64,000 nucleotides of DNA. It comes from Candidatus Adlerbacteria bacterium. Its GTDB lineage: Bacteria > Patescibacteriota > Minisyncoccia > Phycocordibacterales > SBAW01. How positions within the stretch are numbered: the stretch's first letter is position 1; every line of letters begins with the position of its first letter. The stretch spans positions 94,986 to 158,985 of the forward strand of contig JARIGK010000002.1 in assembly GCA_029288895.1 (NCBI GenBank). The letters run 5' to 3'. The notes beneath the pieces are model-generated. The model ran no database searches, was not told where the DNA came from, and was given only the letters and a program-made list of their open reading frames with translations. Positions 6,710 through 45,449 of this stretch are shown piece after piece. The translations under genes were made by a program, and so were the position numbers.

Positions 6710-7131
6710 TTTTTAGTTGTGCGCCAGTGCCACACTGCGAGGCCAAACAATACAAGTGTCGTGAGCGCTGAAATCGCGCAGTACTGGCACAGTGCGCCAA
6801 TCACAAAGTATTGGAAAAGTTCGAAGAAAATAGAAAACGCGAGACCGATAGTTGCATACGCCATAAGACCTATGCGGAGACCTTTTGAATATGGGTCGAT
6901 AGCGAGCAACACCGCGAGCGCCAACATATACACGTAATACACGAGGCCAATGTGTGCCAATGTCACACCAAATACGCTCGAATATGGGCTGTTAAGCACG
7001 CGCTCGCATCCGTGGAGCACCAAACACCCAGGCACGACGCCATGCAATTTTTCGTACACCAAGTACAAGGTGTCACCGATGCCAATAAATGTTGTGGCAA
7101 TGAGCCAGTATGGCGTGAGAATTACTTTCAT
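6706..7131 (-). CDS. Vitamin K epoxide reductase (VKOR) family membrane protein
   Basis: 141 aa, 4 TM helices, loop cysteine pair (GCLVLHGCE) and CQYC motif in the last TM helix, consistent with VKOR disulfide-generating enzymes. Confidence 0.55.
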   Translation of the reverse strand: MKVILTPYWLIATTFIGIGDTLYLVYEKLHGVVPGCLVLHGCERVLNSPYSSVFGVTLAHIGLVYYVYMLALAVLLAIDPYSKGLRIGLMAYATIGLAFSIFFELFQYFVIGALCQYCAISALTTLVLFGLAVWHWRTTKN

Positions 7132-7670
7132 TGTGTAAATGTAACACTGGAAAGGAGGTTCTTGAAGTCGGTGCGGATGGCGTCATCGGCCTTCATCCAG
7201 GATGCGGCAAAGATATAGACCGCGCCGCTGTGTTCGACAGCAACCGCATCAGACTCGTACAAGCCACTATAGCGATATGCGAGTGCAGGCTGGCCTGCCA
7301 CTGTTGTTTGCGTAATCTTTTTGTCGGGCGAGAGATAGAAGTTGGTAATAGATGAATCACGCACCCATTGCTCGAGCGTTGTTGTTGCTGGGCGTGCGAC
7401 TTTGATGATTGAGATAGCGGTCGGACCCTTGCTCATGTCGGGCACCGTGCTTGATGCATCAATGAGGGTTAATATCTGCACCGGCATGCCATTAAAACTA
7501 TCGTGGCGAGCGTTCAGGTCGTACGTTGGCGGGTACGTAAACGCCAACCCTATTTCATTTGAGCGGTACGAGCCTTCCGTTATTGCAGAGTGGCTGCCCA
7601 TGCGCGATGCGTACCATACGCCCGCACCTGCTACGAGCAGAAGTATCGCAATTACAGAAAGGCGTTTCAT
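7128..7670 (-). CDS. Hypothetical secreted protein
   Basis: Start trimmed to MKRLSVIAILLLVAGAGVWYAS (signal/anchor); no recognised family. Confidence 0.5.
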   Translation of the reverse strand: MKRLSVIAILLLVAGAGVWYASRMGSHSAITEGSYRSNEIGLAFTYPPTYDLNARHDSFNGMPVQILTLIDASSTVPDMSKGPTAISIIKVARPATTTLEQWVRDSSITNFYLSPDKKITQTTVAGQPALAYRYSGLYESDAVAVEHSGAVYIFAASWMKADDAIRTDFKNLLSSVTFTQ

Positions 7671-7671
7671 A

Positions 7672-8217
7672 CTATTTAAGTAAGTCTTTAAACTTCGTTT
7701 CGACTTTCTCGACCTTGGGCGCAATCACAAGCTGGCAGTACCCCGCGCCTTTATTTCGCTCGTAATAATTTTTGTGATAGTCCTCCGCTGGGAAGTAGTT
7801 TTCGAACGGGCGGACGTCTGTGACGATGGGTTTTACAAACCCTCCTTTATTTAAGACTGATATGTAGTGCTCGGCTTTTTCTTTTTGGCGAGGAGTTGTG
7901 TAGAAGATAGCAGAATGATATTGCGGGCCAACATCATTCCCTTGCCTGTTTGGAGTTGTTGGGTCATGGCTCGCAAAAAATACGCGAAGTAACTCTTCGA
8001 ATGCAATTTCGTCTGGATTAAATTCGATTTTGATGACTTCAATATGGCCCGTGGTGCCGGTGCAGACCTGTTCGTAGGTTGGATGCATCACATGCCCGCC
8101 TGCGTAGCCAGGCTCGACCGCTTTCACTCCCTTTATCATTAAAAAAACTGCTTCGGTGCACCAAAAGCATCCTCCGCCAAACGCCACTGTCTCTATAATG
8201 TTATCCACATCTTGCAT
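7672..8217 (-). CDS. msrA: Peptide methionine sulfoxide reductase MsrA
   Basis: GGGCFWC active-site motif and full-length MsrA similarity (181 aa). Confidence 0.9.
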   Translation of the reverse strand: MQDVDNIIETVAFGGGCFWCTEAVFLMIKGVKAVEPGYAGGHVMHPTYEQVCTGTTGHIEVIKIEFNPDEIAFEELLRVFFASHDPTTPNRQGNDVGPQYHSAIFYTTPRQKEKAEHYISVLNKGGFVKPIVTDVRPFENYFPAEDYHKNYYERNKGAGYCQLVIAPKVEKVETKFKDLLK

Positions 8218-30662: not shown

Positions 30663-31694
30663 ATGAGCCGCCGTACAGAAAAACTCAGCCGCACGCCAAG
30701 CCGCACCATGCATATACGCATGGGTGCAAGTTTTCTAGTAGGCGCTCTATGCGCCGCAGGCGCCTTTCTGGTGTGGATGCAGTACCACCCATTCACCATC
30801 TACTCCAAACCGCTCCGCCTCGTGGGCGAATATAAGTTAGTTGCCCCACTGTTGGCGTGCCAAACACTGGACTCGGGCGTTGTTCCCTCAGACAAAGCAC
30901 TCACGAAAAAAATCCAGACCATCATTACGTCGGCAGAAGCAAACCACAACGCAGAAGATGTATCAGTCTATATCCAACACTTTAACACTGGGCAGTGGGT
31001 TGGTATTGGTGAAAATAAATTGTATGCCCCCGCAAGCTTGGCAAAAGTGCCTCTCTTTATTGCGTACCTCAAGGCAGCGCAGGATGACCCGAGCATTTTA
31101 AACAAAAGCGTTCTCTACAGCGGCTCTCTTGAAAGCGAAGACGAGGAAGATTTCCAACCGATGACAGTTGGCAAAACGTATACCATCCAAGATTTGCTGT
31201 ACCGGCTTATCATCTACTCGGACAATGATGCAAAGGATTATTTACACAACATCATCAACCCCACAGTAGTAACCGACGTGTTTAAGGACTTCGGTCTAGA
31301 AGAGCCGTCGGCGCAAGACACCGGCGACTCGATGTCTCCAAAAGAATATTCGATCTTCTTCCGCACGCTCTACAACTCGACCTACCTCACACCCGACATA
31401 TCAGAAGCTGCACTCCAGATTTTGAGCGAGACTAAATTTAATGATGGACTTGTCGCAGGCGTTGCTTCGAGTACGCCGGTGGCGCACAAATTTGGCCATC
31501 GCCGCTTCGATATGCCGCAACTAGGCCAGGGCGGTATTACAGAAGAATTGCATGACTGCGGCATCGTCTATACACAACCAAACCCGTACTTTATTTGCGT
31601 GATGACCAAGGGCTGGAATGTAGGCGACCTCAAGTCGACCATCGCACGCATTTCACAAGCTGCGTACCAAACTATTTCAGCAGAGAAAAATTAA
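30663..31694 (+). CDS. Serine hydrolase of the class A beta-lactamase fold
   Basis: S-x-x-K (ASLAK), SDN (YSDND) and KTG-like (HKFGH) motifs in correct order and spacing; N-terminal TM anchor. Confidence 0.6.
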   Translation: MSRRTEKLSRTPSRTMHIRMGASFLVGALCAAGAFLVWMQYHPFTIYSKPLRLVGEYKLVAPLLACQTLDSGVVPSDKALTKKIQTIITSAEANHNAEDVSVYIQHFNTGQWVGIGENKLYAPASLAKVPLFIAYLKAAQDDPSILNKSVLYSGSLESEDEEDFQPMTVGKTYTIQDLLYRLIIYSDNDAKDYLHNIINPTVVTDVFKDFGLEEPSAQDTGDSMSPKEYSIFFRTLYNSTYLTPDISEAALQILSETKFNDGLVAGVASSTPVAHKFGHRRFDMPQLGQGGITEELHDCGIVYTQPNPYFICVMTKGWNVGDLKSTIARISQAAYQTISAEKN

Positions 31695-35451: not shown

Positions 35452-35522
35452 TGCCCGATCGTCTAATGGTAGGACAGAGGCCTTTGAAGCCTTTAATCGT
35501 GGTTCGAATCCATGTCGGGCAG
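35452..35522 (+). tRNA. tRNA-Gln (anticodon TTG)
   Basis: Cloverleaf: acceptor TGCCCGA/TCGGGCA, anticodon loop CTTTGAA, T-arm CGTGG-TTCGAAT-CCATG, discriminator G; no encoded CCA. Confidence 0.8.
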
Positions 35523-35544
35523 CTCGTTAAGGTAGAATAAAGCT

Positions 35545-35949
35545 ATGGAAAAAACTTATATCGATAAGCTCGCTTTTATCGAGTTGAAAGATAGAAAAGT
35601 TTTGGAAACTAAAAGCCGCGGCAAAGATACATGGTATATACCCGGCGGGAAACGTGACGAAGGCGAAAGTGACGAACAAGCTTTAATACGAGAAGTCAAA
35701 GAGGAGTTAAATGTAGAAATTGATCCAACTACGATAGTTCATTATGGAACTTTCGAAGCGCAGGCTCATGGCAAACCAGAAGGCACGGTTGTTCGTATGA
35801 CTTGCTATCAGGCAAAATATTTTGGTGACCTGACCCCCAGTGCGGAAGTAGAAATGATGGATTGGTTCGACTACTCAAAAAAGAACTTAACATCTCCTGT
35901 AGATCAGATTATTTTTGACGATCTAAAAGATAGAAATCTGATTGATTAG
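35545..35949 (+). CDS. NUDIX hydrolase (cassette 1, tRNA-proximal; low GC about 40%)
   Basis: Nudix box GGKRDEGESDEQALIREVKEELNV. Confidence 0.85.
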   Translation: MEKTYIDKLAFIELKDRKVLETKSRGKDTWYIPGGKRDEGESDEQALIREVKEELNVEIDPTTIVHYGTFEAQAHGKPEGTVVRMTCYQAKYFGDLTPSAEVEMMDWFDYSKKNLTSPVDQIIFDDLKDRNLID

Positions 35950-35960
35950 GTTTGAAAAAA

Positions 35961-36045
35961 GTTCGAATATCGTCACCACACGAGTATTTCCATTTTTATA
36001 CTCACTTTGTTCGTTAAAAATGAGGTCGCCCAGACGGCCAGCTCG
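35961..36045 (+). repeat. Cassette-boundary repeat R1 (split copy: gttcgaatatcgtcacca ... cccagacggccagctcg with about 50-bp insert)
   Basis: Halves of the 30-bp consensus GTTCGAATATCGTCCCAGACGGGCAGCTCG; 3' flank CAGCTCGTTAGATAAAAG matches tRNA-Gln 3' flank CAGCTCGTTAAGGTAGAATAAAG. Confidence 0.65.
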
Positions 36046-36077
36046 TTAGATAAAAGAAAAACGACGCACATGCGTCG

Positions 36078-36416
36078 TTAATGGAGAGATGTTTTCCGGA
36101 TACTTTTCATCTTCTCCTCCAAGTCACAAAAGCCGAGTTTAATGAGTGCTGGCCTAGCTTCAATTGGGCCGCTCCAATACGCACCCATCTCATCGATGAT
36201 ATAGAGCGCCCCCTCAGATGTTAGGAGAGCAGGAAGATGTTTTTGTGCGACAAGACGTTTGATCTCCCTCCGAGACATTTTTGTAGACGGTTCCAATCCA
36301 AAAGAACTCATATTGGCTTCAATTTTTTCGAAGTCATTTTTGGAAAGAATTTCATCGCCGGGCATACATCCAAGAGCGCGGAGATTCTGTTCGTGCTTGC
36401 TCGGTTTCTTTGGCAT
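36078..36416 (-). CDS. Hypothetical protein (cassette 2)
   Basis: 112 aa; GAGGAGG RBS before ATG at 36416; palindromic terminator acgacgca-c-tgcgtcgt at 36057..36076. Confidence 0.5.
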   Translation of the reverse strand: MPKKPSKHEQNLRALGCMPGDEILSKNDFEKIEANMSSFGLEPSTKMSRREIKRLVAQKHLPALLTSEGALYIIDEMGAYWSGPIEARPALIKLGFCDLEEKMKSIRKTSLH

Positions 36417-36475
36417 GCAAATGCCTCCTCGATATATTTGAATCTAAGAGCAACGTACCATATCTTCCAGCAAGG

Positions 36476-36504
36476 TTCCAACTTCGTACCAGACGGGCAG
36501 CTCG
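36476..36504 (+). repeat. Cassette-boundary repeat R2 (hybrid type: TTCCAACTTCGTACC + AGACGGGCAGCTCG)
   Basis: 3' half identical to consensus; 5' half matches the variant seen in R6/R9. Confidence 0.65.
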
Positions 36505-36553
36505 TAAAAAAAGAAGAAGGCCGTCCATCCCATAAGGGAAGACGACCTTGAGT

Positions 36554-36862
36554 TCATGGCTTGTCGGGTGTCTCCTCGAAAGTGGCGACGCACTCCTTCA
36601 GGGAAAGGAAGAGTTCCTTTCGTTTGTTGAGGATAAAGGCATCGCCGACTTTGACGCGAAGTAACCAGATGTAGTTTGAGCCTTGAAAGACGGTCACACC
36701 GTTAAGGGTTACAGAATGATCACTAGGGTGACAGGCCATGACCCTCACGACCTCTTCAGGCGCGATGTAGAAATAACCACCGAGGCTGATTGAACGCTCG
36801 GCTCCAAAAGCTGGGGATGAAAGAACGAGTAGCGCACACACACCGGCGAATCGATTCAACAT
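36554..36862 (-). CDS. Hypothetical small secreted protein (cassette 3)
   Basis: Signal peptide MLNRFAGVCALLVLSSPAFGA; GGAGGA RBS. Confidence 0.5.
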   Translation of the reverse strand: MLNRFAGVCALLVLSSPAFGAERSISLGGYFYIAPEEVVRVMACHPSDHSVTLNGVTVFQGSNYIWLLRVKVGDAFILNKRKELFLSLKECVATFEETPDKP

Positions 36863-36977
36863 CACAATCCTCCAGATAAACAGGCCTTGATGAATTTACC
36901 ACACTTTTCTAAAATGTCAGCTCCATTTAATCGAGGAAGTTGGAGATTGCATGCACCATGCCCGCTCCCCTAAACTA

Positions 36978-37019
36978 GTTCGAATATCGTCACCACTATC
37001 GTCCCAGACGGGCAGCTAG
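36978..37019 (+). repeat. Cassette-boundary repeat R3 (gttcgaatatcgtcacca-ctatcgtc-ccagacgggcagctag)
   Basis: Consensus with 8-bp internal duplication; lies between divergent cassette genes. Confidence 0.65.
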
Positions 37020-37077
37020 TGACTTTTTGAATAATTTATTGTAGTTTCCATGGCGGGTCAGCACATGGAGGAACATA

Positions 37078-37617
37078 ATGACTGAGACAGCGGCTCGTGA
37101 GGGCAAGGGCGGTAGACTTCGTAGCGTCGAACGTCCAACGCGGCATCTGCCGAATTGCGCGCCGCCGGCACACACGAAGGTTTATGGCACGGGCGAGACC
37201 GAGCAGGAGCGACAGAGTGACATCTTCGAATTCGTCTGTGCAGAGGAATGGCACGACCACTTCGTCGGCTATTCATACGACCGCTCCAACCATCGGACTG
37301 GTCGCTACGACCGTCAGGGGTTGGTCCAGTCCGGCGCCATCATCTCGCTGGCATGCGGTCTCTCGAGCTGGATCTACCCAGATCATGTCCTGATCGACAT
37401 GGGCGAGATCAAGTTTCCGATTCCAATCTATGTCGGAGACAAGATTCGTCTGACATTCAGGAATCGTGCTCCGCAGGGCGTGCGGTACATCGACATCAAG
37501 CTCGAAGTCTTCCGCGAAGAGGAATGGCATGCGGTCTGCTCGACTCGCGCGGTTATTACCCGCTTCATCCCGCCGATTCGCAAGGACTATGTCGAGGCAC
37601 CGGATCAGTCGGCATAA
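37078..37617 (+). CDS. Hypothetical protein, possible hotdog-fold (cassette 4; high GC about 58%)
   Basis: GGAGGA RBS; 179 aa; composition markedly GC-richer than neighbours; followed by terminator 37631..37667. Confidence 0.5.
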   Translation: MTETAAREGKGGRLRSVERPTRHLPNCAPPAHTKVYGTGETEQERQSDIFEFVCAEEWHDHFVGYSYDRSNHRTGRYDRQGLVQSGAIISLACGLSSWIYPDHVLIDMGEIKFPIPIYVGDKIRLTFRNRAPQGVRYIDIKLEVFREEEWHAVCSTRAVITRFIPPIRKDYVEAPDQSA

Positions 37618-37630
37618 GTAGCAACATTGC

Positions 37631-37667
37631 AGACCGTTCCACTCAATCGGACGGTCTTTTCTTTTTA
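37631..37667 (+). terminator. Intrinsic terminator
   Basis: agaccgt tccactcaatcgg acggtct followed by TTTTCTTTTTAT. Confidence 0.7.
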
Positions 37668-37674
37668 TATATTT

Positions 37675-37704
37675 GTTCGAATATCGTCCCAGACGGCCAG
37701 CTCG
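37675..37704 (+). repeat. Cassette-boundary repeat R4 (GTTCGAATATCGTCCCAGACGGCCAGCTCG)
   Basis: Near-perfect consensus copy, 16 nt upstream of the next cassette ATG. Confidence 0.7.
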
Positions 37705-37720
37705 AGTATACTATTATCTA

Positions 37721-38225
37721 TATGCACCCAGAAGAATATCTAGACCTGGTGGATGAGAATGATCGGGTAATTGGGCGAGAACTTCGATCTACGATATACG
37801 CGAATGGTTGGAAGAATTTTCGGGTAGTTAATGTTTTTCTAAAAAATTCTAAAGGTCAACTTTGGATTCCTCGCCGCACTGCACACAAGGCAATATTTCC
37901 GTCAGCTCTAGACTTTAGCGCAGCAGGACATGTTTCAAGCGGAGAGTCATACGATGAAGCGTTTGCAAAAGAAGTCCAAGAAGAATTGAATATTGATGTT
38001 TCAAAGGTACGTCACCGACTATTGGGCTACCTCACCCCTAAGGATGGTGCCGTTCTTTTTATGCAGGTATACGAAATCGAAAGTGATGAGACGCCGCAGT
38101 ACAATCCAGATGACTTCAGCGAATCGTACTGGCTTACCCCTCAAGAAGTTGTTACTCGAATAGAGAATGGAGATTCTGCAAAAAATGATATTCCATTTTT
38201 GATCAAACGTTTCTATTTACAATAA
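37721..38225 (+). CDS. NUDIX hydrolase (cassette 5; low GC)
   Basis: Nudix box GHVSSGESYDEAFAKEVQEELNI; start ATG at 37721 (MHPEEYLDLV). Confidence 0.8.
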
Positions 38226-38250
38226 TTCGGATATCGTCCCAGACGGCTCG
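38226..38250 (+). repeat. Cassette-boundary repeat R5 (degenerate: TTCGGATATCGTCCCAGACGG-CTCG)
   Basis: Begins immediately after the NUDIX stop codon; 3-nt deletion relative to consensus. Confidence 0.6.
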
Positions 38251-38268
38251 TTTTGTTACAATTATTGA

Positions 38269-38610
38269 ATGCTGAAGATAAAGCGTGTATACGAACCGAT
38301 GGAGAAAAAAGATGGGTTGAGAATACTCGTTGATCGTCTCTGGCCTCGTGGGCTTACCAAAAACAAAGCTCATGTAGACTTCTGGATGAAAGATATTGCA
38401 CCCAGCCCAAAGTTACGAATATGGTTTGGGCATGAGCCAACAAAGTGGGTATTGTTCAAACGCCGCTATCTTGCAGAGCTGCATAAGAACAAAAAAGTGG
38501 TTGAGGAAATAAAGACCCATATGAAAGAGAATAAGAAAATTACTTTGCTATATGGAGCAAAAGATACAATGCACAACCATGCTCTCATACTTCAGGATTT
38601 TTTGTCCTAA
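38269..38610 (+). CDS. DUF488 (YeaO-like) family protein (cassette 6)
   Basis: RVYE...GLRILVDRLWPRG...W.KDIAPS..LR.WFGHEP..W..F...Y..EL......ITLLYGAKD pattern typical of DUF488. Confidence 0.75.
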   Translation: MLKIKRVYEPMEKKDGLRILVDRLWPRGLTKNKAHVDFWMKDIAPSPKLRIWFGHEPTKWVLFKRRYLAELHKNKKVVEEIKTHMKENKKITLLYGAKDTMHNHALILQDFLS

Positions 38611-38615
38611 TATAA

Positions 38616-38648
38616 TCCCAACTTCGTACCACACACCCAGCTAATGAC
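38616..38648 (+). repeat. Cassette-boundary repeat R6 (variant type: TCCCAACTTCGTACCACACACCCAGCTAATGAC)
   Basis: Shares TCCAAC.TCGTACCA with R2 and R9; diverged 3' half. Confidence 0.55.
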
Positions 38649-38700
38649 TTTTTAGTATAAATATTGTAAATTCTTTTTTGGAATAGAGGGAGGTGTTTGA

Positions 38701-39225
38701 ATGGACGAAGCTATGGAAAGTGCTCTTCGTTTTTATGAAGAGAATCGAGTGGGAAGTTTTGGGCGCCATGCTCATTTCCATTTTATGCAAGCGATGAAGT
38801 TAGGGTACGCCACTATGGCGCCCGAAGGCTCAATCGCTGAATTGCCAGGCTCGAAGACCATCGAGTATTCACATGAAAGATGGCGTGTTGTTGATACCTA
38901 CATCGTCACGCCGAACAGTCCGTATAGTGGCGGGACAACGATGCTGTACTATGATCCGCTGCCGGTGTTCATGATGCAATACCTCGGAAAGTATGAGGAG
39001 ATTGCAATCCCGTGCCTGAAAGCTGCACTCAAGGCCGGCTCAAGTGCCGGTGAATTCAATGGCGGACGCGGCCAAGATCTCTTTGTGCACGAAGGGTTCA
39101 CTTACACGAACGATGCATATGGAGATTTTTTCACCCACTCAAGCGCTTTCGAACAGATCTTCGATCCGAACAGACAACGCGTCGGTTGGCATCGTTGTCA
39201 GTCGATCTGGATGCTCCGGAAATAG
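38701..39225 (+). CDS. Hypothetical protein (cassette 7)
   Basis: GAGGGAGG RBS; 174 aa, no recognised domain; followed by terminator 39237..39268. Confidence 0.55.
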   Translation: MDEAMESALRFYEENRVGSFGRHAHFHFMQAMKLGYATMAPEGSIAELPGSKTIEYSHERWRVVDTYIVTPNSPYSGGTTMLYYDPLPVFMMQYLGKYEEIAIPCLKAALKAGSSAGEFNGGRGQDLFVHEGFTYTNDAYGDFFTHSSAFEQIFDPNRQRVGWHRCQSIWMLRK

Positions 39226-39236
39226 TAATTTCAACG

Positions 39237-39268
39237 ACGGCCGACTCAGTTGGCCGTTTTTCTTTTAT
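39237..39268 (+). terminator. Intrinsic terminator
   Basis: acggcc gactcagt tggccgt followed by TTTTTCTTTTAT. Confidence 0.7.
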
Positions 39269-39274
39269 AAATTC

Positions 39275-39304
39275 GTTCGAATATCGTCCTAGACGGGCGG
39301 CTCG
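39275..39304 (+). repeat. Cassette-boundary repeat R7 (GTTCGAATATCGTCCTAGACGGGCGGCTCG)
   Basis: Two substitutions relative to consensus; sits between convergent cassette genes, each with its own terminator. Confidence 0.7.
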
Positions 39305-39353
39305 TAAAATAAAAACATCGCGGATCATGCCGCGATGTGGAAGAACCGAGATT

Positions 39354-39620
39354 CTATTGATCAGGATCCCACGGTTTGAGTTGTGCACTATCGATGTCAC
39401 CAAACCCCTGAAAAAATACCCGTCTAAGCTCAGCAGCCTTGACGAGACATGTGTCGTGAATAACGATTTTCAATCTGTCGCCGTTCCCCGGGTCGAAGAC
39501 AGTTGATCCATAATTCCCTGTAGAGACAAACTCAACGCCGTCCTTTGGCAGATCAGTGCCTGGTCCGTTGAGATTTTCAATTTCTCTGCCGCATACGATG
39601 CAGGGAAGAGCGTTGACCAT
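39354..39620 (-). CDS. Hypothetical protein (cassette 8)
   Basis: 88 aa, AGGAGAG RBS; terminator hairpin catcgcgg-atcatgc-cgcgatg at 39316..39345 on minus strand. Confidence 0.5.
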   Translation of the reverse strand: MVNALPCIVCGREIENLNGPGTDLPKDGVEFVSTGNYGSTVFDPGNGDRLKIVIHDTCLVKAAELRRVFFQGFGDIDSAQLKPWDPDQ

Positions 39621-39682
39621 ATGTCTCTCCTGTGTTTAATCTGAGCAAAAGTTAGCACACATTTTTTCCTTTTTCCATATTC

Positions 39683-39712
39683 GTTCGAATATCGTCCCAG
39701 ACGGGCAGCTCG
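39683..39712 (+). repeat. Cassette-boundary repeat R8 (GTTCGAATATCGTCCCAGACGGGCAGCTCG, consensus copy)
   Basis: Exact consensus; between stop of cassette-9 gene and start region of cassette-8 gene. Confidence 0.7.
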
Positions 39713-39763
39713 CTAGATAATAGAAAACCGCTCACCTTTCAGTGAACGGTTCGTGCCGAACGG

Positions 39764-40072
39764 CTACTCTGCGTTCGAAAATTCCATTTTTCCTGTTCGA
39801 TCGTTGCTATTGTACTCGACCGAAATCCAATTGTATGGAGGTAATTTCTTTTTATCTTCGGCACTAATTTCTGACAATTGTCCGCCAAGTTTGTAATTTG
39901 ATCCATGGCACGTGACGAATTGAAAGTTGTAAATCTTTAGCCTAACAACTAAGGGCTGACCTTCAACGAAAAGTGTGAACTTAGCCACTGCTCCCAAATT
40001 ACGTGCGACGAACGCCTGCTCAAGATCGCGCTGACCTGGGCCATTGCCTATGTAGAGCCATGGAAGAGTCAT
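39764..40072 (-). CDS. Hypothetical protein (cassette 9)
   Basis: 102 aa, no recognised domain. Confidence 0.5.
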   Translation of the reverse strand: MTLPWLYIGNGPGQRDLEQAFVARNLGAVAKFTLFVEGQPLVVRLKIYNFQFVTCHGSNYKLGGQLSEISAEDKKKLPPYNWISVEYNSNDRTGKMEFSNAE

Positions 40073-40206
40073 AAAGATCTCCGGGGTTTGAAAAGAACAA
40101 TCACATCAAACATAAAGAAGGATGTGAGCCGTCAGACTATCTGGCAGCAGGAAAACAGTAAATTTTTATCACGTATACGTCAAGTTCCTGAGTTAACTCT
40201 CTAAAA

Positions 40207-40236
40207 TTCCAACGTCATACCACACACCTCTCAAAC
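40207..40236 (+). repeat. Cassette-boundary repeat R9 (most diverged variant: TTCCAACGTCATACCACACACCTCTCAAAC)
   Basis: Aligns with R6/R2 5' half; distal-most copy. Confidence 0.5.
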
Positions 40237-40264
40237 TTATCCAAACAAGGCGTATTATTACCGA

Positions 40265-40501
40265 ATGTACTTCGTATATATGCTCGAGTGTAGCGACGGG
40301 TCGCTGTATACCGGCATTACGACTGATGTAAAAAGACGCTTCCAAGAACATAAGGCTGGCAAAGGCGGGCACTTCACCAGCTCGAGAGACGTTGTAAAAA
40401 TTGTATACACCGAAGAACATCCGGACAGGTCGTCTGCATCCAAACGCGAAGCCGAAATAAAACGCCTGCGCCGAGCAGACAAATTAAAGTTGATTTCATA
40501 G
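40265..40501 (+). CDS. GIY-YIG domain protein (UPF0213/YhbQ-like, 78 aa)
   Basis: MYFVYMLECSDGSLYTGITTDVKRRFQEHKAGKGGHFT GIY-YIG signature. Confidence 0.75.
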   Translation: MYFVYMLECSDGSLYTGITTDVKRRFQEHKAGKGGHFTSSRDVVKIVYTEEHPDRSSASKREAEIKRLRRADKLKLIS

Positions 40502-40556
40502 AAATTTCAGTGCCCACCTTCAGCAACTTTTAACCGCGTATGCAGTTATATGAAGT

Positions 40557-40814
40557 ATGTCCAAAGGGAAACGGATTTTGGGAAGTATTGCTATTGCTGT
40601 CGTTGCAGTGGGTGCTTTTTTGGGGTACCAGGTGTACCGAACGAACGCGGCCCATTCATCATTTGAAAACTACTACGCATTCCGTGGATGCCAAGAATTG
40701 ATCGAAAAAACTGACTCCTTCGCTACCTGCCGGCTTGCCGACGGCTCGATTATTAAACTCGTACTCATAAACAACAAGTGGTACCTCGACGGCGACGGCC
40801 CCGGTATTTGGTAG
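40557..40814 (+). CDS. Small membrane-anchored hypothetical protein
   Basis: 85 aa with N-terminal TM helix; possible degenerate boundary repeat just upstream (40507..40535). Confidence 0.4.
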   Translation: MSKGKRILGSIAIAVVAVGAFLGYQVYRTNAAHSSFENYYAFRGCQELIEKTDSFATCRLADGSIIKLVLINNKWYLDGDGPGIW

Positions 40815-40833
40815 AAATTGGTATAATTGATAG

Positions 40834-41130
40834 ATGAAACTTACTGGCGGCACCGTACACACCCTTCCTCCAGATTTGAAAGCGGCGCTCGCCAAAGATG
40901 CGAAGGCAGCACGTTTGTGGGAAGAGATTACCCCGCTCGCCCGCAATGAATGGATCTGCTGGACCATTTCAGTAAAGCAAGACAAAACGCGCAACGACCA
41001 TGTTAAGCGCGTCGTATCGGAGTTAAAAGACGGCATGCGCCGCCCCTGCTGCTGGATAGGCTGCATCCATCGCACCGACAAAAAAGTGAGCCGCTCTGTA
41101 CAGTTCGTCCTCGCAAAACGCTCTAAATAA
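40834..41130 (+). CDS. YdeI/OmpD-associated (OmdA) family protein
   Basis: DLKAALAKDAKAARLWEEITPLARNEWICWTISVKQDKTRNDHVKRVVSELKDGMRRPC matches the YdeI/OmdA family pattern. Confidence 0.6.
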   Translation: MKLTGGTVHTLPPDLKAALAKDAKAARLWEEITPLARNEWICWTISVKQDKTRNDHVKRVVSELKDGMRRPCCWIGCIHRTDKKVSRSVQFVLAKRSK

Positions 41131-41148
41131 TAGTGCTACAATTCCCGC

Positions 41149-41520
41149 ATGAAGGAACGGCACAAAAAGCGGATCGTTCATTGGTTTACGTCCGAAGAAA
41201 AATTTATTAAAACTCCTGTCGGCATTTTTTTGCTTGGATGTTTTTTGGGCGAGCTTTCTCCCGACCCTACAGACGCCGTTCATTTTTGGCTGCAACAGCA
41301 TGTACTTAACAATCCTACATTCCCTGCATTTTGGCGTGCATTTTTGCAGGTCTTCGACTGGTACTTTATGAGCGCATGTTACTTTCTCCTGTTGCTCATA
41401 CTCGCCTACTTCTTGCACATAACCAACGTCGGCGCTGTCAAACGCTTTACTATCGTTGCAGGTGTTTTAAGCATCGGCGCCGCTGTCGGCATCTTGGCGC
41501 AGTTTGTCATAGGCAGTTAG
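41149..41520 (+). CDS. Hypothetical membrane protein
   Basis: 123 aa, 3 hydrophobic helices; weak RBS. Confidence 0.35.
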   Translation: MKERHKKRIVHWFTSEEKFIKTPVGIFLLGCFLGELSPDPTDAVHFWLQQHVLNNPTFPAFWRAFLQVFDWYFMSACYFLLLLILAYFLHITNVGAVKRFTIVAGVLSIGAAVGILAQFVIGS

Positions 41521-41524
41521 TACG

Positions 41525-41974
41525 ATGAACTACTGGCTTCTCAAAACAGAACCAAGCGCGTATTCGATAGACGATTTAAAGCGCGACAAAACAACTGCCT
41601 GGGAGGGCGTGCGCAACTACCAGGCGCGCAACTTTATGCAACAGATGAAGAAGGGAGATTTATGCCTCTTCTACCACTCGAGCACGGAACCTGTTGGTGT
41701 ATTTGGCGTCGCAAAGGTAACAAAAGAAGCCTATCCTGATGCATCACAGTTTAATAAAAAAGATTCGCACTTCGACCCGAAGGCCACGAAAGAAAAACCT
41801 ATCTGGTTTTGCCCCGACATTACCTTTGTCAAAAAATTTAAAGAGCCGTTCCTTTTGACGCATATCAAAGCCGACCATGCCCTGCGCGGCATTATGGTCG
41901 CCCAGCAAGGCTCGCGCCTTTCCGTCCAGCCCGTATCCGAAATGCATTTCACATATATCACCAAAAACGCGTAG
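41525..41974 (+). CDS. EVE (PUA-like) domain protein
   Basis: MNYWLLKTEPSAYSIDDLKRDKTTAWEGVRNYQARNFMQQMKKGDLCLFYHS is the typical EVE-domain N-terminus. Confidence 0.8.
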   Translation: MNYWLLKTEPSAYSIDDLKRDKTTAWEGVRNYQARNFMQQMKKGDLCLFYHSSTEPVGVFGVAKVTKEAYPDASQFNKKDSHFDPKATKEKPIWFCPDITFVKKFKEPFLLTHIKADHALRGIMVAQQGSRLSVQPVSEMHFTYITKNA

Positions 41975-42019
41975 CATTCTACACGCGAAATTCACGAGTG
42001 CTCTGCGACTATTGAGCAC

Positions 42020-42490
42020 ATGAACGAATTTGTAAGTACAAAGGTTGGCGAGGTACTGGCGTTTGCACGCCTCTGTACCGATACGCTTGAAATGGGGCGC
42101 AGCGCGCTCGCAGAGATGGTTGGCGAAGAACGCCTCGACAGCGCAGAAGACGAACTTGAGACCCTCGAGCGCTCGATAGCTGCCTTGGCACAGGACGAAC
42201 ATGCCGTTGTGGCAATCGAGACATCCGCGACACAGACGCAAGAAAAATTGCGCACCATGCGCGACACCTATATCGACGGCAATTGGGACGAAGCCAGCGA
42301 AGTGCTTGAATGGCTCGGCTTTTCGACTGGCGCCGCATTGGTGCATTGGCACTTGCTCGCCGGCGCTGCACGCGCCACGGACGACAGCGGGCTTGCCGAT
42401 GTGGCAAAAGACGCGATCCGTTTCTACACATCGCTCTTTAGCTCGGACGAAGCAGTTCTTGCCGAGATCGGTGCATCAGCGGCCGCCTAA
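42020..42490 (+). CDS. Hypothetical acidic protein
   Basis: 156 aa, Ala/Glu-rich, relatively GC-rich; no recognised family. Confidence 0.4.
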   Translation: MNEFVSTKVGEVLAFARLCTDTLEMGRSALAEMVGEERLDSAEDELETLERSIAALAQDEHAVVAIETSATQTQEKLRTMRDTYIDGNWDEASEVLEWLGFSTGAALVHWHLLAGAARATDDSGLADVAKDAIRFYTSLFSSDEAVLAEIGASAAA

Positions 42491-42533
42491 GAAAAACCCG
42501 CGAGCAATGCCCGCGGGTGTAGTAGGTACAGAA

Positions 42534-43124
42534 CTATTCTTCCTCACTTTCATCCTCGCCCTGGCCGCCCTCTGGTTTGCCGCTCTTGGGCCTGCGAGAC
42601 GAAGGCGAAATGACAGAGACGCGAAGTTTTTTTACCTGCATGGCACTTGCTGTTGCAGTACGCACATCGGCATTTTCCTTACCCTCTGCCAACAAGCGTA
42701 TGGGCTGGAGCGCACGTTCGGTGACTTTTTGCCATACCGGTTTCGACAGTGCCTGCTCGAGATAGCCCGGGTTCACGGTCAGCTCAAAACTCGTTGCAAT
42801 GAGCGTTTTTCCTAGCTTCCCTTCTATCTCCTCGACGCCAGTGTGCGCCCAGTGCGGAAGCAATTGCCCCACAAGCGTCTCGCGGCGTTCCAGCAGCGGA
42901 TTCAACTGTTGCTGGATTTTTTCAAGCTCGTCGACAAGTTCGACAACCTTCTCTGGCTTAAGTTGCGGGCCTTTTGCTCTCTCTGCCCTGCGGCGTTTCG
43001 AGATCGCCTGATTTTTAACACTCTCTGCAAGTGCCTCAAACCAGCTATATGCCTGTCGTAGTTTTTTTGTAACTCCAACATGCGTTGGGCCCGATGCTTT
43101 TCGTGCCTGCGCAGTGACTACCAT
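42534..43124 (-). CDS. Hypothetical protein with acidic C-terminal tail
   Basis: Start trimmed to ATG at 43124 preceded by GAGGAGAAGAGGG RBS; 196 aa, basic N-terminus, coiled-coil-like centre, EDESEEE tail. Confidence 0.5.
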   Translation of the reverse strand: MVVTAQARKASGPTHVGVTKKLRQAYSWFEALAESVKNQAISKRRRAERAKGPQLKPEKVVELVDELEKIQQQLNPLLERRETLVGQLLPHWAHTGVEEIEGKLGKTLIATSFELTVNPGYLEQALSKPVWQKVTERALQPIRLLAEGKENADVRTATASAMQVKKLRVSVISPSSRRPKSGKPEGGQGEDESEEE

Positions 43125-43243
43125 CCCTCTTCTCCTCGATCTGCTATGAATTAACTCGTCAATGAAGAACTCTCCGACCAGCAACTCTACACAACCCACA
43201 TAAACCTCACATGAAGTACAGAACGAGTTGCTATACTTGGTAT

Positions 43244-43753
43244 ATGCAAAAAATCACAGCTCATCTTTGGTACGACAAAGAAGCAGAAGAGGCCATCAAT
43301 TACTACGTCGACGTGTTTAACGGCGCCCCCAACAAAGAGGCCGAGTCACAAGTGCTCAGCATCACCCGCTACCCTGAAGGTGGCACAGGCCCCATGGCCG
43401 GTATGGACGGCAAAGTGCTTACTGGCGTCTTCGAGTTGGCCGGCCAGCGCTTTATGGCGCTCGATGGCGGCCCCATCTTCAAGTTCAACGAGTCGATCTC
43501 AATGCTCGTCAATTGTAAAACCCAAGAAGAAATAGACTATTTCTGGGGCAAACTCTCTGCCGTGCCCGAAAGCGAACAGTGCGGCTGGTGCAAAGACAAA
43601 TTCGGCCTTTCGTGGCAAATCAACCCCACCGAAATTATGGGCAAGATGATGGACGGTTCTAACCCAGCAAAAACAAAAGCTGTCATTGCAGCCTTTATGC
43701 CGATGAAGAAGCTGGATATCGCAGCACTCCAAGCCGCCTACGACGCGGCGTAG
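43244..43753 (+). CDS. VOC-family protein of the 3-demethylubiquinone-9 3-methyltransferase-like (PhnB-like) domain family
   Basis: MQKITAHLWYD...AEEAINYYVDVF...VLTGVFELAGQRFMALDGGP.FKFNESISMLVNCKTQEEIDYFWGKLS...CGWCKDKFGLSWQI. Confidence 0.75.
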   Translation: MQKITAHLWYDKEAEEAINYYVDVFNGAPNKEAESQVLSITRYPEGGTGPMAGMDGKVLTGVFELAGQRFMALDGGPIFKFNESISMLVNCKTQEEIDYFWGKLSAVPESEQCGWCKDKFGLSWQINPTEIMGKMMDGSNPAKTKAVIAAFMPMKKLDIAALQAAYDAA

Positions 43754-43754
43754 C

Positions 43755-44306
43755 CTACATTAGCTTCGTTTCCTCATCTTCTTCGTCCATATCGTTGGCG
43801 CGCTCGTTTACGCCCGACGTTGCGAGCTCGTTCAACTTTTCATCCGTTGCCTCTTCCTCCTCGAGCGTCTCCTCAAGCAGGTCGGCGACTTCGGTGTGGC
43901 CCATTTCGCGCGCCCACTCCACAGCGCTGCCATAGCCAGCGATTTCGTAATGCTCTACATACTGCGCCGCGGCGATCAAGTTTGCGTCAAGCGCTTCGCT
44001 TCCCTCGACGTTCTTGATCACCCATTCGCCATCAGCTATAAGGCCGCGTATCGCTTCGCTTTTTAATTTCTTCGGCTTTTCATTAAGCAATTCAAATGCT
44101 TTTTCGAGGCGCTCGATCTGCCCTTTTGTTTGCTCCAAATGTTCTTCAAACCCTGATTTCAATTCTGCATCGCTCGCAGCCTTTGCCATCTTAGGCAAGG
44201 CTTTGGTAATTTCATGCTCAACGTCGTAGAGCGACTGCATCTTGGTAATAAGCAAATCATGGAGCGTCATAGACTCCTGTGATTTTGATTTCTTTGTTGT
44301 AGCCAT
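43755..44306 (-). CDS. Ferritin-like DUF892 (YciE/YciF) family protein
   Basis: LHDLLITKMQSLYDVEHEITKALPKMAKAA...FEEHLEQTKGQIERLEKAFELL pattern of DUF892; acidic C-terminus. Confidence 0.75.
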   Translation of the reverse strand: MATTKKSKSQESMTLHDLLITKMQSLYDVEHEITKALPKMAKAASDAELKSGFEEHLEQTKGQIERLEKAFELLNEKPKKLKSEAIRGLIADGEWVIKNVEGSEALDANLIAAAQYVEHYEIAGYGSAVEWAREMGHTEVADLLEETLEEEEATDEKLNELATSGVNERANDMDEEDEETKLM

Positions 44307-44369
44307 AGAAAATGATGGGTTAGGTATAACCTACCCATTATCCGTACAGCCTTCTGTTGGTGTGATGAA

Positions 44370-45431
44370 TCAGGCTGCACCAAGTGCACGGTAGAGCGCA
44401 AGCTCAAGCGGTATAGCAGGGACCGGCGCTTTGCCCATCTCGAGCAGTGCAGTAATAAGTTCTGAAAGTAGATGCGCATTAATAGCTGCGCCCGAGGCAC
44501 CCGCCAAGTTGGAGAGAAATGCGATATCGTCCTCGCTCAACTGCTCGGCTAACTGAGCCTTTAATTCTGGCGCAAAGCGCAGCAGTAGCACACCGCGCAC
44601 TTTTGCGATGGCTAGCATCGCAAATACTTTAGGCTGGGCGCCAGCCTTCAACCCCGCATGAAATTGTGCGAGTGCCTGTGCAATATTTTTTGCCGCAAGC
44701 GCGTCCAAAAACGCATTCACGCTCTTTGATGAAGGCGCGCCTACAACCTGCGCCACCTCTTCTTCTGTCAGTGTTGCATCTTCTGAAATCGTGAGAACTT
44801 TCTGCAAAATACCAAGCGTGTCGCGGAAGGAACCATCACCCATCATGGCAATAAGTTCGGCGCCTGCAGGAGCAAGCGATGCACCCTCTTTCTTTGCAAC
44901 ATCAAGCACGAGCTTCTTTAATGTCTCGTGCGACGGGTTCTTAAATTGGAATGTCTGGCAGCGCGATTTGATTGTGTCTGGAACTTTATCAAGCTCTGTT
45001 GTGGCAAGCACAAACACCACGTGCTCGGGCGGCTCTTCCAAGGTCTTGAGTAACGCACCCCAGGCTTGCGGCGTTAGCGCATGCGCTTCGTCGACGATAT
45101 AAAACTTGTACGCCGACTGAAATGGCAGCGTTGCAACACCCTCGCGCAGCTCGCGTATCTCGTCGATACCGCGGTTGCTTGCCGCATCCATCTCGTAGAT
45201 GTCAGCATCAGCGGTACCCAAGGCGCGCGCCAAAGCGCGCGCCATCGATGTTTTGCCTGTGCCGCGCCCGCCCGAAAAGAGGTAGGCATGCGCGATCTTC
45301 TTTTGTGCGACAGCTGCACGTAAGACAGCGGTAATATGCTCTTGGTCGCGGAATTCATCAAACTCCCCTGGCCTATACTTTCTGTATAGCGCTACGGGCG
45401 CACGCGTATCGGCTGGAGTGCTCTTTGCCAT
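44370..45431 (-). CDS. dnaX: DNA polymerase III subunit gamma/tau, short form (355 aa)
   Basis: YRKYRPGEFDEFRDQEHI, GGRGTGKTS Walker A, VDEAHAL, SRCQTFQFK sensor motifs; no tau C-terminal extension. Confidence 0.85.
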   Translation of the reverse strand: MAKSTPADTRAPVALYRKYRPGEFDEFRDQEHITAVLRAAVAQKKIAHAYLFSGGRGTGKTSMARALARALGTADADIYEMDAASNRGIDEIRELREGVATLPFQSAYKFYIVDEAHALTPQAWGALLKTLEEPPEHVVFVLATTELDKVPDTIKSRCQTFQFKNPSHETLKKLVLDVAKKEGASLAPAGAELIAMMGDGSFRDTLGILQKVLTISEDATLTEEEVAQVVGAPSSKSVNAFLDALAAKNIAQALAQFHAGLKAGAQPKVFAMLAIAKVRGVLLLRFAPELKAQLAEQLSEDDIAFLSNLAGASGAAINAHLLSELITALLEMGKAPVPAIPLELALYRALGAA

Positions 45432-45449
45432 CCACACCAGTATACTGGC

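Follow-up and report, generated by a model that had tools for sequence, protein, structure and literature searches.

A tRNA-Gln gene of a candidate-phyla-radiation bacterium is followed by nine single-gene cassettes, each closed by a conserved 27-base mimic of the tRNA end

The window analysed here, 64,000 nucleotides of a Candidatus Adlerbacteria contig, carries a tRNA-Gln(UUG) gene at 35452..35523 on the + strand (ARAGORN; 62.8 bits against the Rfam tRNA model). This gene anchors an array of nine cassettes, each with a single gene and each closed by a short repeat that imitates the end of the tRNA. The nine boundary repeats, R1 to R9, all lie on the + strand like the tRNA and span 35961-40232, with one gene per interval. 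Repeats at the cassette boundaries had been reported in a preliminary description and are real, and the 3′ end of the tRNA with its flank reads as given there, GGTTCGAATCCATGTCGGGCAGCTCGTTAAGGTAGAATAAAG. The stretch that the repeats resemble runs from the T-loop to 3 nt past the 3′ end of the tRNA (35502..35526, +, GTTCGAATCCATGTCGGGCAGCTCG), and within it GTTCGA lies 5 nt nearer to CAGC than it does in the repeats.

The repeats fall into two classes. Type A is a sharply bounded site of 27 nt, GTTCGAATATCGTCCCAGACGG[C/T/G]CAGC, and type B reads GTTCC[C/A]AC.TCGTACCA...CAGC. Cassette 1 (35545..35949, +) encodes a 134-aa NUDIX hydrolase (Pfam PF00293, E=1.2e-12) and ends in R1 (35961..36042), a type-A site split after GTTCGAATATCGTC by ACCAC and about 49 nt, then continuing as CCCAGACGGCCAGC. 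Cassettes 2 (36078..36416, −, 112 aa, with its own terminator at 36079-36060) and 3 (36554..36865, −, 103 aa) have no Pfam match. R2 between them (36475..36501, GTTCCAACTTCGTACCAGACGGGCAGC) joins a type-B left half to a tRNA-like right end, and R3 (36978..37016) is a type-A site with a 12-nt internal insertion or duplication, GTTCGAATATCGTC-ACCACTATCGTC-CCAGACGGGCAGC. Cassette 4 (37078..37617, +), of 179 aa and again without a Pfam match, is closed by the intact type-A site R4 (37675..37701, GTTCGAATATCGTCCCAGACGGCCAGC, 44.5 bits). A second NUDIX hydrolase, of 167 aa, fills cassette 5 (37722..38225, +; PF00293, E=1.6e-13), and R5 (38225..38247, ATTCGGATATCGTCCCAGACGGC), a type-A site lacking the terminal CAGC, begins at its stop codon. 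Cassette 6 (38269..38610, +) encodes a 113-aa DUF488 protein (PF22752/PF04343) and ends in the type-B site R6 (38615..38641, ATCCCAACTTCGTACCACACACCCAGC), which is nearly identical to the site of Ca. Adlerbacteria relatives (L064-L067). Cassette 7 (38701..39225, +), whose 174-aa product has a weak DUF5680 match, has a terminator at 39236-39258 and is followed by the type-A site R7 (39275..39301, GTTCGAATATCGTCCTAGACGGGCGGC). The last two genes, of 88 aa (cassette 8, 39354..39620, −, terminator 39338-39315) and 102 aa (cassette 9, 39764..40072, −, terminator 39752-39725), have no Pfam match. They are closed by R8 (39683..39709, GTTCGAATATCGTCCCAGACGGGCAGC), an intact type-A site with a window-specific G, and by R9 (40206..40232, ATTCCAACGTCATACCACACACCTCTC), a degenerate type-B site that is not significant alone. 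In all, four of the nine cassette genes are on the minus strand, and terminators of their own were found for cassettes 2, 7, 8 and 9.

Beyond R9, a repeat-free stretch (40233..44306) reaches to dnaX and carries GIY-YIG, OmdA, EVE, PhnB-like, DUF892 and unknown genes (Pfam). The same families also fill the dnaX-to-VIT1 interval in the relatives L064 and L068, and this stretch is probably an older, repeat-free part of the same variable island. The content of this locus differs among relatives, with nine cassettes in the window, one site in L064 and none in L068. G+C is reduced across 35-42 kb, and the array is not at a GC-skew switch. Exact-protein look-ups found none of the window's genes on record, which leaves the window itself without strain-level alleles. 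Pfam scans of window ORFs detected no family of recombinase, integrase or transposase, and the ORFs outside these scans were recognised as housekeeping genes by eye only.

The resemblance of the repeats to the tRNA is better than chance for most of them. Local alignment of the tRNA 3′ end and flank to each repeat, compared with 2000 shuffles, gave p≤0.0005 for R1 (distal part), R2 and R8, 0.0025 for R3, 0.005 for R7 and 0.01 for R4. R5, R6 and R9 individually were not significant, so the similarity that had been proposed for the whole set holds for six of the nine repeats. It is specific to tRNA-Gln: the last 16 nt of the site match tRNA-Gln 3′ 16-mers at 10-13 of 16 positions, and other tRNAs at 3-10. 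The window has eight copies of the block GTTCGAAT, where 2.5 would be expected; six copies, all on the + strand, lie at 35502-39690. GGGCAGCTCG, allowing at most one mismatch, occurs 17 times against 5.0 ± 2.3 expected, a count that no shuffle reached; seven of the 17 copies lie at 35517-39712, all on the + strand, and those in the tRNA, R2 and R8 are exact. The 3′ flank of R1 parallels the tRNA flank at 22 of 26 positions, as had been noted. The claim that the distal copies R6 and R9 are the most degenerate did not survive. Disruption is greatest in R1, which lies nearest to the tRNA; R4 and R8 are the best-preserved copies, and R2, R6 and R9 belong to type B, a separate class that is conserved in other genomes. 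R1 is indeed split and R3 does carry a 12-nt duplication, but the 5 nt inserted between the two blocks are constant in the site across all genomes and are no accident of these two repeats.

The 27-mer is conserved well beyond this genome. It was found in 54 further Paceibacteria/Parcubacteria loci, from 22 species-representative genomes and 32 metagenome contigs, and within each locus all matches above 7.7 bits are on one strand. A tRNA-Gln lies upstream on the same strand in 19 of the 54 loci and in the window, that is, in every locus with a visible upstream end; no other tRNA takes this anchor place in the 19 loci. Conservation is limited to the 27 nt, with information content near zero at position −1 and past CAGC. 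The conserved block starts 25 nt ahead of the position equivalent to A72, and symmetry within it is limited to the 4-nt CGTC/GACG and TTCGAA; type-B sites have no TTCGA motif. From GTTCGA to CAGC the site spans 27 nt, against 22 nt for tRNA-Gln. All site classes and all tRNA-Gln genes have no stretch but CAGC in common, and the sequence after it falls into the same classes behind tRNAs as behind sites (AATTGACTTTT..., TCG..., CAACTCGTG...). Within the two site classes, the left half is strongly linked to the right half, and a type-A left half is never joined to a type-B right half, which rules out free crossover between the halves. A G at the variable position is seen in the window only, and it equals nucleotide 70 of the window's own tRNA. 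Since the same 27-mer is present in genomes with differing tRNA-Gln 3′ ends, it is mostly element-borne. Scans of viral contigs for type A and type B gave no match. Architectures like dif or attC, CRISPR and dispersed REP/MITE elements were all rejected on structure and distribution; REP/MITE elements come in many copies and both orientations, and here the sites keep to one strand per locus and are absent from the other 59 kb of the window. Our literature search on cassette arrays, integrons and tRNA-linked islands in Patescibacteria/Parcubacteria found no description of such arrays; its coverage was partial and makes this weak evidence of absence.

One array-bearing Paceibacteria species has an empty allele (L073) and a filled one (L075), and here an element that carries a recombinase gene is directly seen to have integrated, in nature, at this tRNA end. 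The two are 100% identical up to the tRNA end, and L073 has six A/B sites downstream. In L075 an insert of 9,477 bp, with a large serine recombinase (LSR) gene of the Resolvase/Recombinase type adjoining the tRNA, is placed between the tRNA and the array and is bounded on both sides by a 9-nt direct repeat of the tRNA end, TCCCGCAGC. Rebuilding the attP of this element gives a site with perfect terminal inverted repeats of 11 bp, whose centre is the C on which the TTCGA...TTCGAA dyad in the empty site is also centred. Genes for LSRs, which combine Resolvase, Recombinase and zinc-ribbon domains, also adjoin tRNA-Gln in L078 and in L079/L080, and one lies 4.6 kb downstream in L055. In a relative whose DnaX is 75% identical to that of the window genome, tRNA-Gln(UUG) is adjoined by an LSR gene of 502 aa. 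The three recombinases observed are homologous.

Site-specific integration at the tRNA-Gln 3′ end does take place in this clade, and the att-like origin that had been proposed is partly supported, but the repeats are not leftover duplications of the target, given that the 27-mer is the same despite differing tRNA ends. The 9.5-kb element sits between the tRNA and a pre-existing array, and therefore the older array was pushed outward; the idea of successive insertions at the tRNA displacing older units stands to this extent, but there is no proximal-to-distal age gradient. The crossover had been placed between the GTTCGAAT and GGGCAG blocks. In the sole case that can be mapped, however, it falls within the last 9 nt of the tRNA, the length of the identity block, and CAGC alone is shared by all site classes with the tRNA.

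The search for an enzyme near the arrays themselves was negative. A motif screen of the 54 repeat loci found no recombinase, with only false positives returned when all of their ORFs were screened by regular expression for tyrosine and serine recombinase motifs, and the Pfam-annotated loci L063, L064 and L068 contain none either. Genes conserved upstream of tRNA-Gln(CUG) were considered as recombinase candidates and proved to be housekeeping genes (CTP synthase, SAM synthetase, FtsEX, DUF1761). A GIY-YIG nuclease occurs near tRNA-Gln(UUG) in the window, L064 and L079, and was dismissed as a common component, being present in none of the 54 repeat loci.

We read the region as a one-directional array of attR-type half-sites, produced by serine-recombinase-type integration at the tRNA-Gln 3′ end, and consider this reading about evenly poised between right and wrong. 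The array would be the footprint of a site-specific gene-capture hotspot whose recombinase class is probably serine. Its units are self-contained single-gene transcription units, with a 27-nt site at the distal end that imitates the T-loop GTTCGA, the 3′ strand of the T-stem after 5 extra nt (ATATC), the 3′ strand of the acceptor, G73 and C74 of tRNA-Gln. The 27-mer would then be a P-type half-site, derived from attP, of a serine-recombinase-type attachment site, and the end of the tRNA gene (...TCGGGCAGC) the matching B-type left half-site, attB. The attP half-site used by large serine recombinases measures 25 bp, and attB has its outer motif 5 bp closer to the centre (PMC3783163). The two spans, 27 nt against 22 nt, agree with this rule, and the 5-nt shift of GTTCGA is directly observed. 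Strand exchange, which for these enzymes takes place at a 2-bp crossover common to the two partners, would occur within the last nucleotides of the tRNA (...GCAGC), so that the tRNA is kept intact. Incoming DNA would enter beside the tRNA, its P half-site would be fused to the previous neighbour as an attR-type hybrid, and repeated rounds of insertion would make the array grow.

By analogy, the 27-nt sites would be substrates or products of the same kind of enzyme as that of the L075-type element. The link between the 27-mer and a serine recombinase goes by analogy only, because the att site of the L075 element is neither type A nor type B. We infer that the small cassettes were moved in trans, and likewise the way in which repeated insertion is possible. 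A search for a mirror arm on the right-hand side of CAGC found neither the 27-mer in inverted form nor TTCGAA at a fixed offset. Under the published rules of serine recombinases, a tRNA end joined to a P′ arm (attL) should refuse another insertion, and tandem growth therefore needs an extra assumption. The sites are also far better conserved than would be expected of inert scars, which counts against reading them as serine-recombinase scars. The lack of the TTCGA motif in type B and the identical arrays in all contigs examined for two species weigh against this reading as well, as does the failure to find a recombinase in the scanned window ORFs and the repeat loci.

A more elaborate version is that Paceibacteria have a gene-capture system of their own. 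The tRNA-Gln 3′ end would be its primary site and the 27-nt mimic its cassette-borne site, an unlinked serine recombinase would act in trans, and a tRNA-like structured element of about 145 nt, which ends in an exact copy of the tRNA 3′ end, would offer an extra internal docking site. We regard this version as possible but doubtful. Rfam has no family that matches the repeats or the structured element. The motif of the latter had four matches in viral contigs, and its covariance model found nothing there, so we take these matches as due to chance.

Other explanations were considered as well. One would be an integron-like platform, in which the 27-nt sites are active and attC-like, the tRNA-Gln end acts like attI, and a dedicated recombinase encoded elsewhere, not necessarily of the serine type, excises single-cassette circles and re-inserts them at any site. 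The tight single-gene units, with sites that begin at or beside stop codons, would fit this, as would the extreme conservation of the site across species, which exceeds that of the tRNA itself. NUDIX, alpha/beta hydrolase, PhnB-like and DUF2200 genes recur as cassettes at different positions and in different genomes, a hydrolase cassette lies behind the tRNA in L030 and, 98% identical, behind another boundary element in L028, and the site variant is modestly homogeneous within genomes (p=0.03). No candidate enzyme was found, however, and the sites have neither the dyad structure of attC nor GTTRRRY cores. The four reversed cassettes, with signals of their own, are unlike those of integrons; neither circles nor cassette-level empty/filled alleles were seen, and the arrays are identical in all contigs examined for two species. 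On this evidence we think an integron-like platform unlikely.

It is improbable that the repeats are partial duplicates of the resident tRNA 3′ end that a series of integrase-carrying elements left behind before decaying to single genes. The 27-mer is unchanged where tRNA-Gln ends differ at 3-6 of their last 16 positions, and this cross-genome comparison contradicts such duplication for type-A and type-B sites; the 5 extra nt are constant, the array contains no integrase fragments, and its boundaries are too regular for random decay. Against this stand the exact copies of resident tRNA-Gln 3′ ends (16 nt or 9 nt) at some boundaries of other loci, the identity of the window sites to the tRNA over 8-11 nt around CAGC, and the Prochlorococcus islands known as tycheposons, which are built in this way (bioRxiv 10.1101/2020.12.28.424599). 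We give an equally slim chance to the idea that no dedicated recombination enzyme is involved. The 27-mer would then serve an accessory-gene regulon as a regulatory signal in DNA or RNA (an operator, insulator or processing site), or be a portable stretch of homology by which DNA that has been taken up undergoes homologous recombination. Roughly one site in four does adjoin a TTGACT −35 box, and 27 nt is near the minimum length for RecA-dependent exchange. But the orientation of the sites is fixed to the tRNA and not to the neighbouring genes, four of nine of which are reversed in the window; the sites are restricted to one locus per genome segment examined, separate terminators and promoters exist, and no Rfam family matches.

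Candidate-phyla-radiation bacteria have tiny genomes, and little is understood of the ways in which accessory genes come and go in them. A conserved, sequence-defined hotspot beside one tRNA would offer a concrete way into the horizontal gene flow of this large group of uncultured bacteria, and it would supply short, well-defined recombination sites. Should the enzyme be found, it would form a new pair of serine recombinase and site, and such pairs are useful in genome engineering. A gene-capture system, if true, would be a functional analogue of the integron based on a different chemistry. Our reading of the array as attR-type half-sites makes a testable prediction, that the 27-mer is an attP-type and the tRNA end an attB-type half-site, separated by the 5-bp shift known from structural work.

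The array shares features with several known systems. Xer-dependent modules (pdif modules, IMEX) are likewise bounded by sites of about 28 nt and rely on a recombinase encoded elsewhere. In the 28-bp Xer/dif site, a 6-bp spacer separates two 11-bp arms that are partly palindromic, and the sites alternate in orientation; the sites of the array have no palindromic arms, are all direct, and are anchored at a tRNA away from any GC-skew switch. Integrons and CALINs, the attC clusters without an integrase, resemble the array in their mostly single-ORF cassettes, their same-orientation sites and their one primary anchor site. Their attC sites, however, are imperfect inverted repeats of 57-141 nt with RYYYAAC/GTTRRRY cores, and integron cassettes are promoterless and in one orientation, whereas the array has conserved 27-nt sites without the attC dyad, a tRNA gene as anchor, and cassettes in both orientations with their own promoters and terminators. 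It has no intI gene, and the scanned window ORFs and L063, L064 and L068 gave no Phage_integrase match.

Tycheposons of Prochlorococcus form tRNA-anchored islands built by tandem integration (bioRxiv 10.1101/2020.12.28.424599). Like the array, these islands lie beside a tRNA gene where entry pushes older elements outward, contain partial tRNA copies and carry accessory genes as cargo. They differ in having tyrosine recombinases and replication modules over several kb, while the units of the array are 0.4-0.7 kb. The tRNA 3′ anchor of tRNA-targeting islands is present here, and an integrase in each unit is not. The flanking repeats of tycheposons are copies of the resident tRNA, which we find only for other boundary classes at other loci and not for types A and B, and the boundary of the array is a conserved tRNA mimic.

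Finally, elements of large serine recombinases (phiC31, Bxb1, A118/LI) differ from the array in several respects. The window and most arrays lack a recombinase, single genes take the place of phages or conjugative elements as the units, no P′ arm that mirrors the 27-mer, and would complete the pseudo-palindromic full site of a free element, can be recognised, and tandem insertion beside an attL-type junction is unexpected for such enzymes. The likenesses lie in the sites and the setting: a left half-site whose outer end is about 25 nt from where the crossover is presumed, an outer motif that the chromosomal site has 5 bp nearer to its centre than the element site does, few nucleotides shared at this putative crossover, hybrid and stable products, and genes of this very family adjoining tRNA-Gln in relatives.

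Downstream of a tRNA-Gln(UUG) gene (35452-35523, + strand; ARAGORN and Rfam), nine short repeats (R1-R9), all on the + strand, lie between 35961 and 40232, and each inter-repeat interval holds exactly one open reading frame, of 88-179 aa. Five of these cassette ORFs lie on the + strand, the other four on the - strand. Pfam identified two NUDIX hydrolases, one DUF488 protein and one DUF5680-like protein, and 5/9 had no Pfam match. Hairpins like intrinsic terminators occur at cassette gene ends, on the appropriate strand and directly adjoining the repeats, and the cassettes are therefore independent transcription units. G+C content is 0.43-0.51 over 35-42 kb, against about 0.50-0.55 on both flanks. 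No recombinase was found in the 64-kb window by a Pfam scan of its ORFs, with the remaining ORFs identified by eye. The stretch from R9 to dnaX (40233-44306) carries GIY-YIG, OmdA/YdeI-like, EVE, PhnB-like (3-dmu-9_3-mt) and DUF892 genes and no recognisable sites. Relatives have PhnB-like and GIY-YIG genes in the same interval, PhnB-like genes are also present in the repeat loci retrieved from other genomes, and this stretch is probably an older part of the tRNA-Gln island. Elsewhere in the window, a class-A-type beta-lactamase family gene (PF13354, E=7e-34; 30663-31694) sits, in a small genome, between TPM/LemA genes and VIT1.

The repeats resemble the tRNA-Gln 3′ end, as the preliminary description had proposed, and this resemblance is real. 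When 45 nt of the tRNA 3′ end and flank were aligned to each repeat, with 2000 shuffles as control, R1, R2, R3, R4, R7 and R8 gave p<=0.01; the similarity of R5, R6 and R9 was not significant. The motif GTTCGAAT occurs 8 times in the window (2.5 expected), 6 of them in the array, and GGGCAGCTCG at <=1 mismatch occurs 17 times (5.0 expected), 7 of them in the array, where exact copies are found in the tRNA, R2 and R8. The last 16 nt of the type-A site, GT-CCCAG-ACGGCCA-G-C, align to the last two nt of the tRNA-Gln T-loop, the T-stem 3′ strand, the acceptor 3′ strand, G73 and C74. They match tRNA-Gln at 10-13/16 positions, compared with 3-10 for the other tRNAs available, which supports the proposed att-like relation. 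Bacterial tRNA-Gln typically has A72 and, next to it, G73. Both site and T-loop contain GTTCGA, which in the site lies 5 nt further upstream of the 16-nt block; from GTTCGA to CAGC the site measures 27 nt and the tRNA 22 nt, in all genomes.

The finding is also more general than a reading of one sequence could show. Searched as an exact pattern, 21 nt of the repeat matched species-representative genomes at 22 loci (nearly all in MAGs of Paceibacterota, Parcubacteria or Patescibacteria) and 32 metagenome contigs, with 0 matches in viral contigs. A profile search recovered about 165 site copies, and within each locus all copies above noise were on one strand. A tRNA-Gln gene lies upstream of the sites on the same strand in 19 loci, with one more cut by a contig end, and no other tRNA occupies that place at any repeat locus. 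High information content is confined to precisely 27 nt and to an A at position -6, falling to about 0 on either side. The type-A consensus is GTTCGAATATCGTCCCAGACGG[C/T]CAGC; the type-B class, to which R2, R6 and R9 belong, reads GTTCC[C/A]AC[G/A/T]TCGTACCA[G/A/C]AC...CAGC. Resident tRNA-Gln 3′ ends vary by genome (TCCCGCA, TCTCGCA, TCTGGCA, CCCGGCA, ACCGGCA, TCGGGCA) while the site remains unchanged. The site is therefore borne by the inserted DNA, and the suggestion that the repeats are duplications of the target is not supported.

CAGC alone is shared by every site class and every tRNA-Gln gene, and the sequences that follow it fall into the same classes behind tRNA-Gln genes as behind sites: a promoter-like AATTGACTTTT...GTGCTATTT, several TCG... 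starts (the window's TCGTTAAGGTAGAAT among them), CAACTCGTG.TAGGTTATCG..., and a hairpin with a structured element behind it. As boundaries, tRNA end and site end are equivalent. Four sites, in several loci, have a recurrent motif of some 50 nt, GGTCTTAGGTAAGAGGTTTnACnGG...GGTTAGAACC, 10-60 nt behind them; it may be a cis-regulatory RNA for the downstream cassette.

The structured element, of about 145 nt, is a third kind of cassette boundary. Copies lie on the - strand at L042:4512-4656, L028:2925-3068, L050:9898-10040 and L038:317-461, and on the + strand at L005:7393-7537, L005:6455-6610 and L020:7716-7869 (loci from other genomes or metagenome contigs); the window has none. The 16 nt at the element's 3′ end reproduce the 3′ end of the resident tRNA-Gln exactly and pair with the element's 5′ end (GCTGCGRGA, hairpin, CTAGGAC), with three conserved hairpins at the place equivalent to the T-loop. 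The minimum free energy is -75.6 kcal/mol (z=-7.6), 18/34 pairs show compensatory changes, and no Rfam family matched. The element always stands 20-35 nt behind a type-A or type-B site or a tRNA. A truncated copy (L006:1866-1985, - strand) follows tRNA-Asp, and its arms match tRNA-Asp.

Insertion at the tRNA, also proposed from the window, is supported by a natural pair of alleles. In one Paceibacteria species, an identical DUF1761 protein is found in about 24 contigs, and two allelic forms occur. In one form (L073, L074, L076, L077), a cyclodipeptide-synthase cassette and an array containing six sites of types A and B come after tRNA-Gln(CUG); in the other (L075, L078), a 9,477-bp insert separates the tRNA from that cassette, and the alleles are 100% identical on either side of it. 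The insert is bounded by a 9-nt direct repeat, TCCCGCAGC, equal to the final 9 nt of the tRNA gene, and encodes an AAA_25 protein, a KAP NTPase and a Resolvase/Recombinase-domain protein, the gene for the last having its 3′ end running into the tRNA end. Joined, its ends give GGTATATTAAG-GTTAAGCTCCCGCAGCCAACTCGTG-CTTAATATACC, a site of about 47 bp with perfect 11-bp terminal inverted repeats. In the empty site, by direct reading, TTCGA of the T-loop and TTCGAA are symmetric about the same C of ...GCAGC. Large serine recombinase attP/attB pairs have this architecture, and the insert allele shows that new DNA is added at the tRNA end and pushes the array already present outward.

The locus also varies closer to the window. 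In the Ca. Adlerbacteria RIFOXYC1_FULL_48 species (L064-L067; DnaX 78% identical to the window's), the dnaX-to-VIT1 interval is 3.4 kb and contains tRNA-Gln(UUG), along with one GIY-YIG gene and just one type-B site, nearly identical to R6. The interval of L068 is devoid of sites, and that of the window spans about 12 kb with nine cassettes. The locus is thus variable among related genomes. GIY-YIG genes flank the island in the window (40265-40501) and L064, and none occurs in any of the 54 repeat loci. In L079 (18097-18160 and 17778-18419), two GIY-YIG genes lie immediately upstream of tRNA-Gln(UUG), accompanied by a fragment that resembles the 5′ part of tRNA-Gln with an insert interrupting it (TTGGGATATCGTC...TAATGGTAGGAC). 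In L036 (253-6552), dnaX and tRNA-Gln(UUG) share a strand, with dnaX immediately upstream; in the window (35452-45437) dnaX has a convergent orientation and lies at the island's far end, so the tRNA-plus-array segment appears inverted between both genomes, whose arrays have no cassette in common. A 350-aa ORF immediately upstream of the L010 array (6683-7735, - strand) has an N-terminus that, by eye, resembles diversity-generating retroelement reverse transcriptases.

Recombinase genes are found at this tRNA in other genomes as well. In another relative (L079/L080; DnaX 75% identical to the window's), a 502-aa Resolvase/Recombinase/Zn-ribbon gene adjoins the tRNA-Gln(UUG) 3′ end. The three recombinases seen are homologous, with 29-37% identity. 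A perfect 133-bp inverted repeat surrounds the large serine recombinase gene in L079 (18489-18621 and 20055-20187), beginning at the tRNA-end CAGCCA; either the recombinase segment is invertible or the repeat is an assembly effect, and two independent assemblies stop about 200-330 nt past it. A species without 27-mers (L055:15155-20423, also L056-L062) has a defence island at this tRNA too: 4.6 kb downstream of tRNA-Gln(CUG), a large serine recombinase of 450 aa precedes type I restriction-modification genes (two HsdS, HsdM) and a ThsB-TIR gene.

The attP half-site of large serine recombinases is 25 bp, and in attB the corresponding outer motif is displaced inward by 5 bp (PMC3783163). The type-A site starts 25 nt before the position equivalent to A72, and this length, together with GTTCGA lying 5 nt further out than in the tRNA, leads us to read the 27-mers as P-type half-sites. 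They would be fused at ...CAGC to older DNA as attR-type hybrids, the tRNA end serving as the B-type half-site. Hybrids of the attR type are inert without a directionality factor, which would fit two species in which every contig read carried an identical array. The G specific to the window in GACGG-G-CAGC is the same as nt 70 of the window's own tRNA, a hint of exchange or heteroduplex repair at this point. R1 and R3 both read GTTCGAATATCGTC and then ACCAC, after which R3 restarts at TATCGTCCCAGACGG and R1 runs on for about 49 nt to CCCAGACGG. Judged from sequence, each resembles a type-A/type-B hybrid stump fused to a second site, and both may be scars of deletions between adjacent sites; their structure does not place the normal crossover, as had been suggested, and the supposed increase in age along the array found no support.

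Several observations misfit the serine-recombinase reading. The L075 att site is neither type A nor type B, no mirror-image arm was found in the right flanks of sites after CAGC, and type B lacks TTCGA. Large serine recombinases are not expected to insert beside an attL-type junction, and the sites are too well conserved for mere scars. For these reasons, and with no recombinase in the window, an integron-like system whose enzyme is encoded elsewhere in the genome remains a serious rival. A literature search of partial coverage found no published description of such arrays; the nearest published concept is that of the tRNA-anchored islands of Prochlorococcus (bioRxiv 10.1101/2020.12.28.424599).
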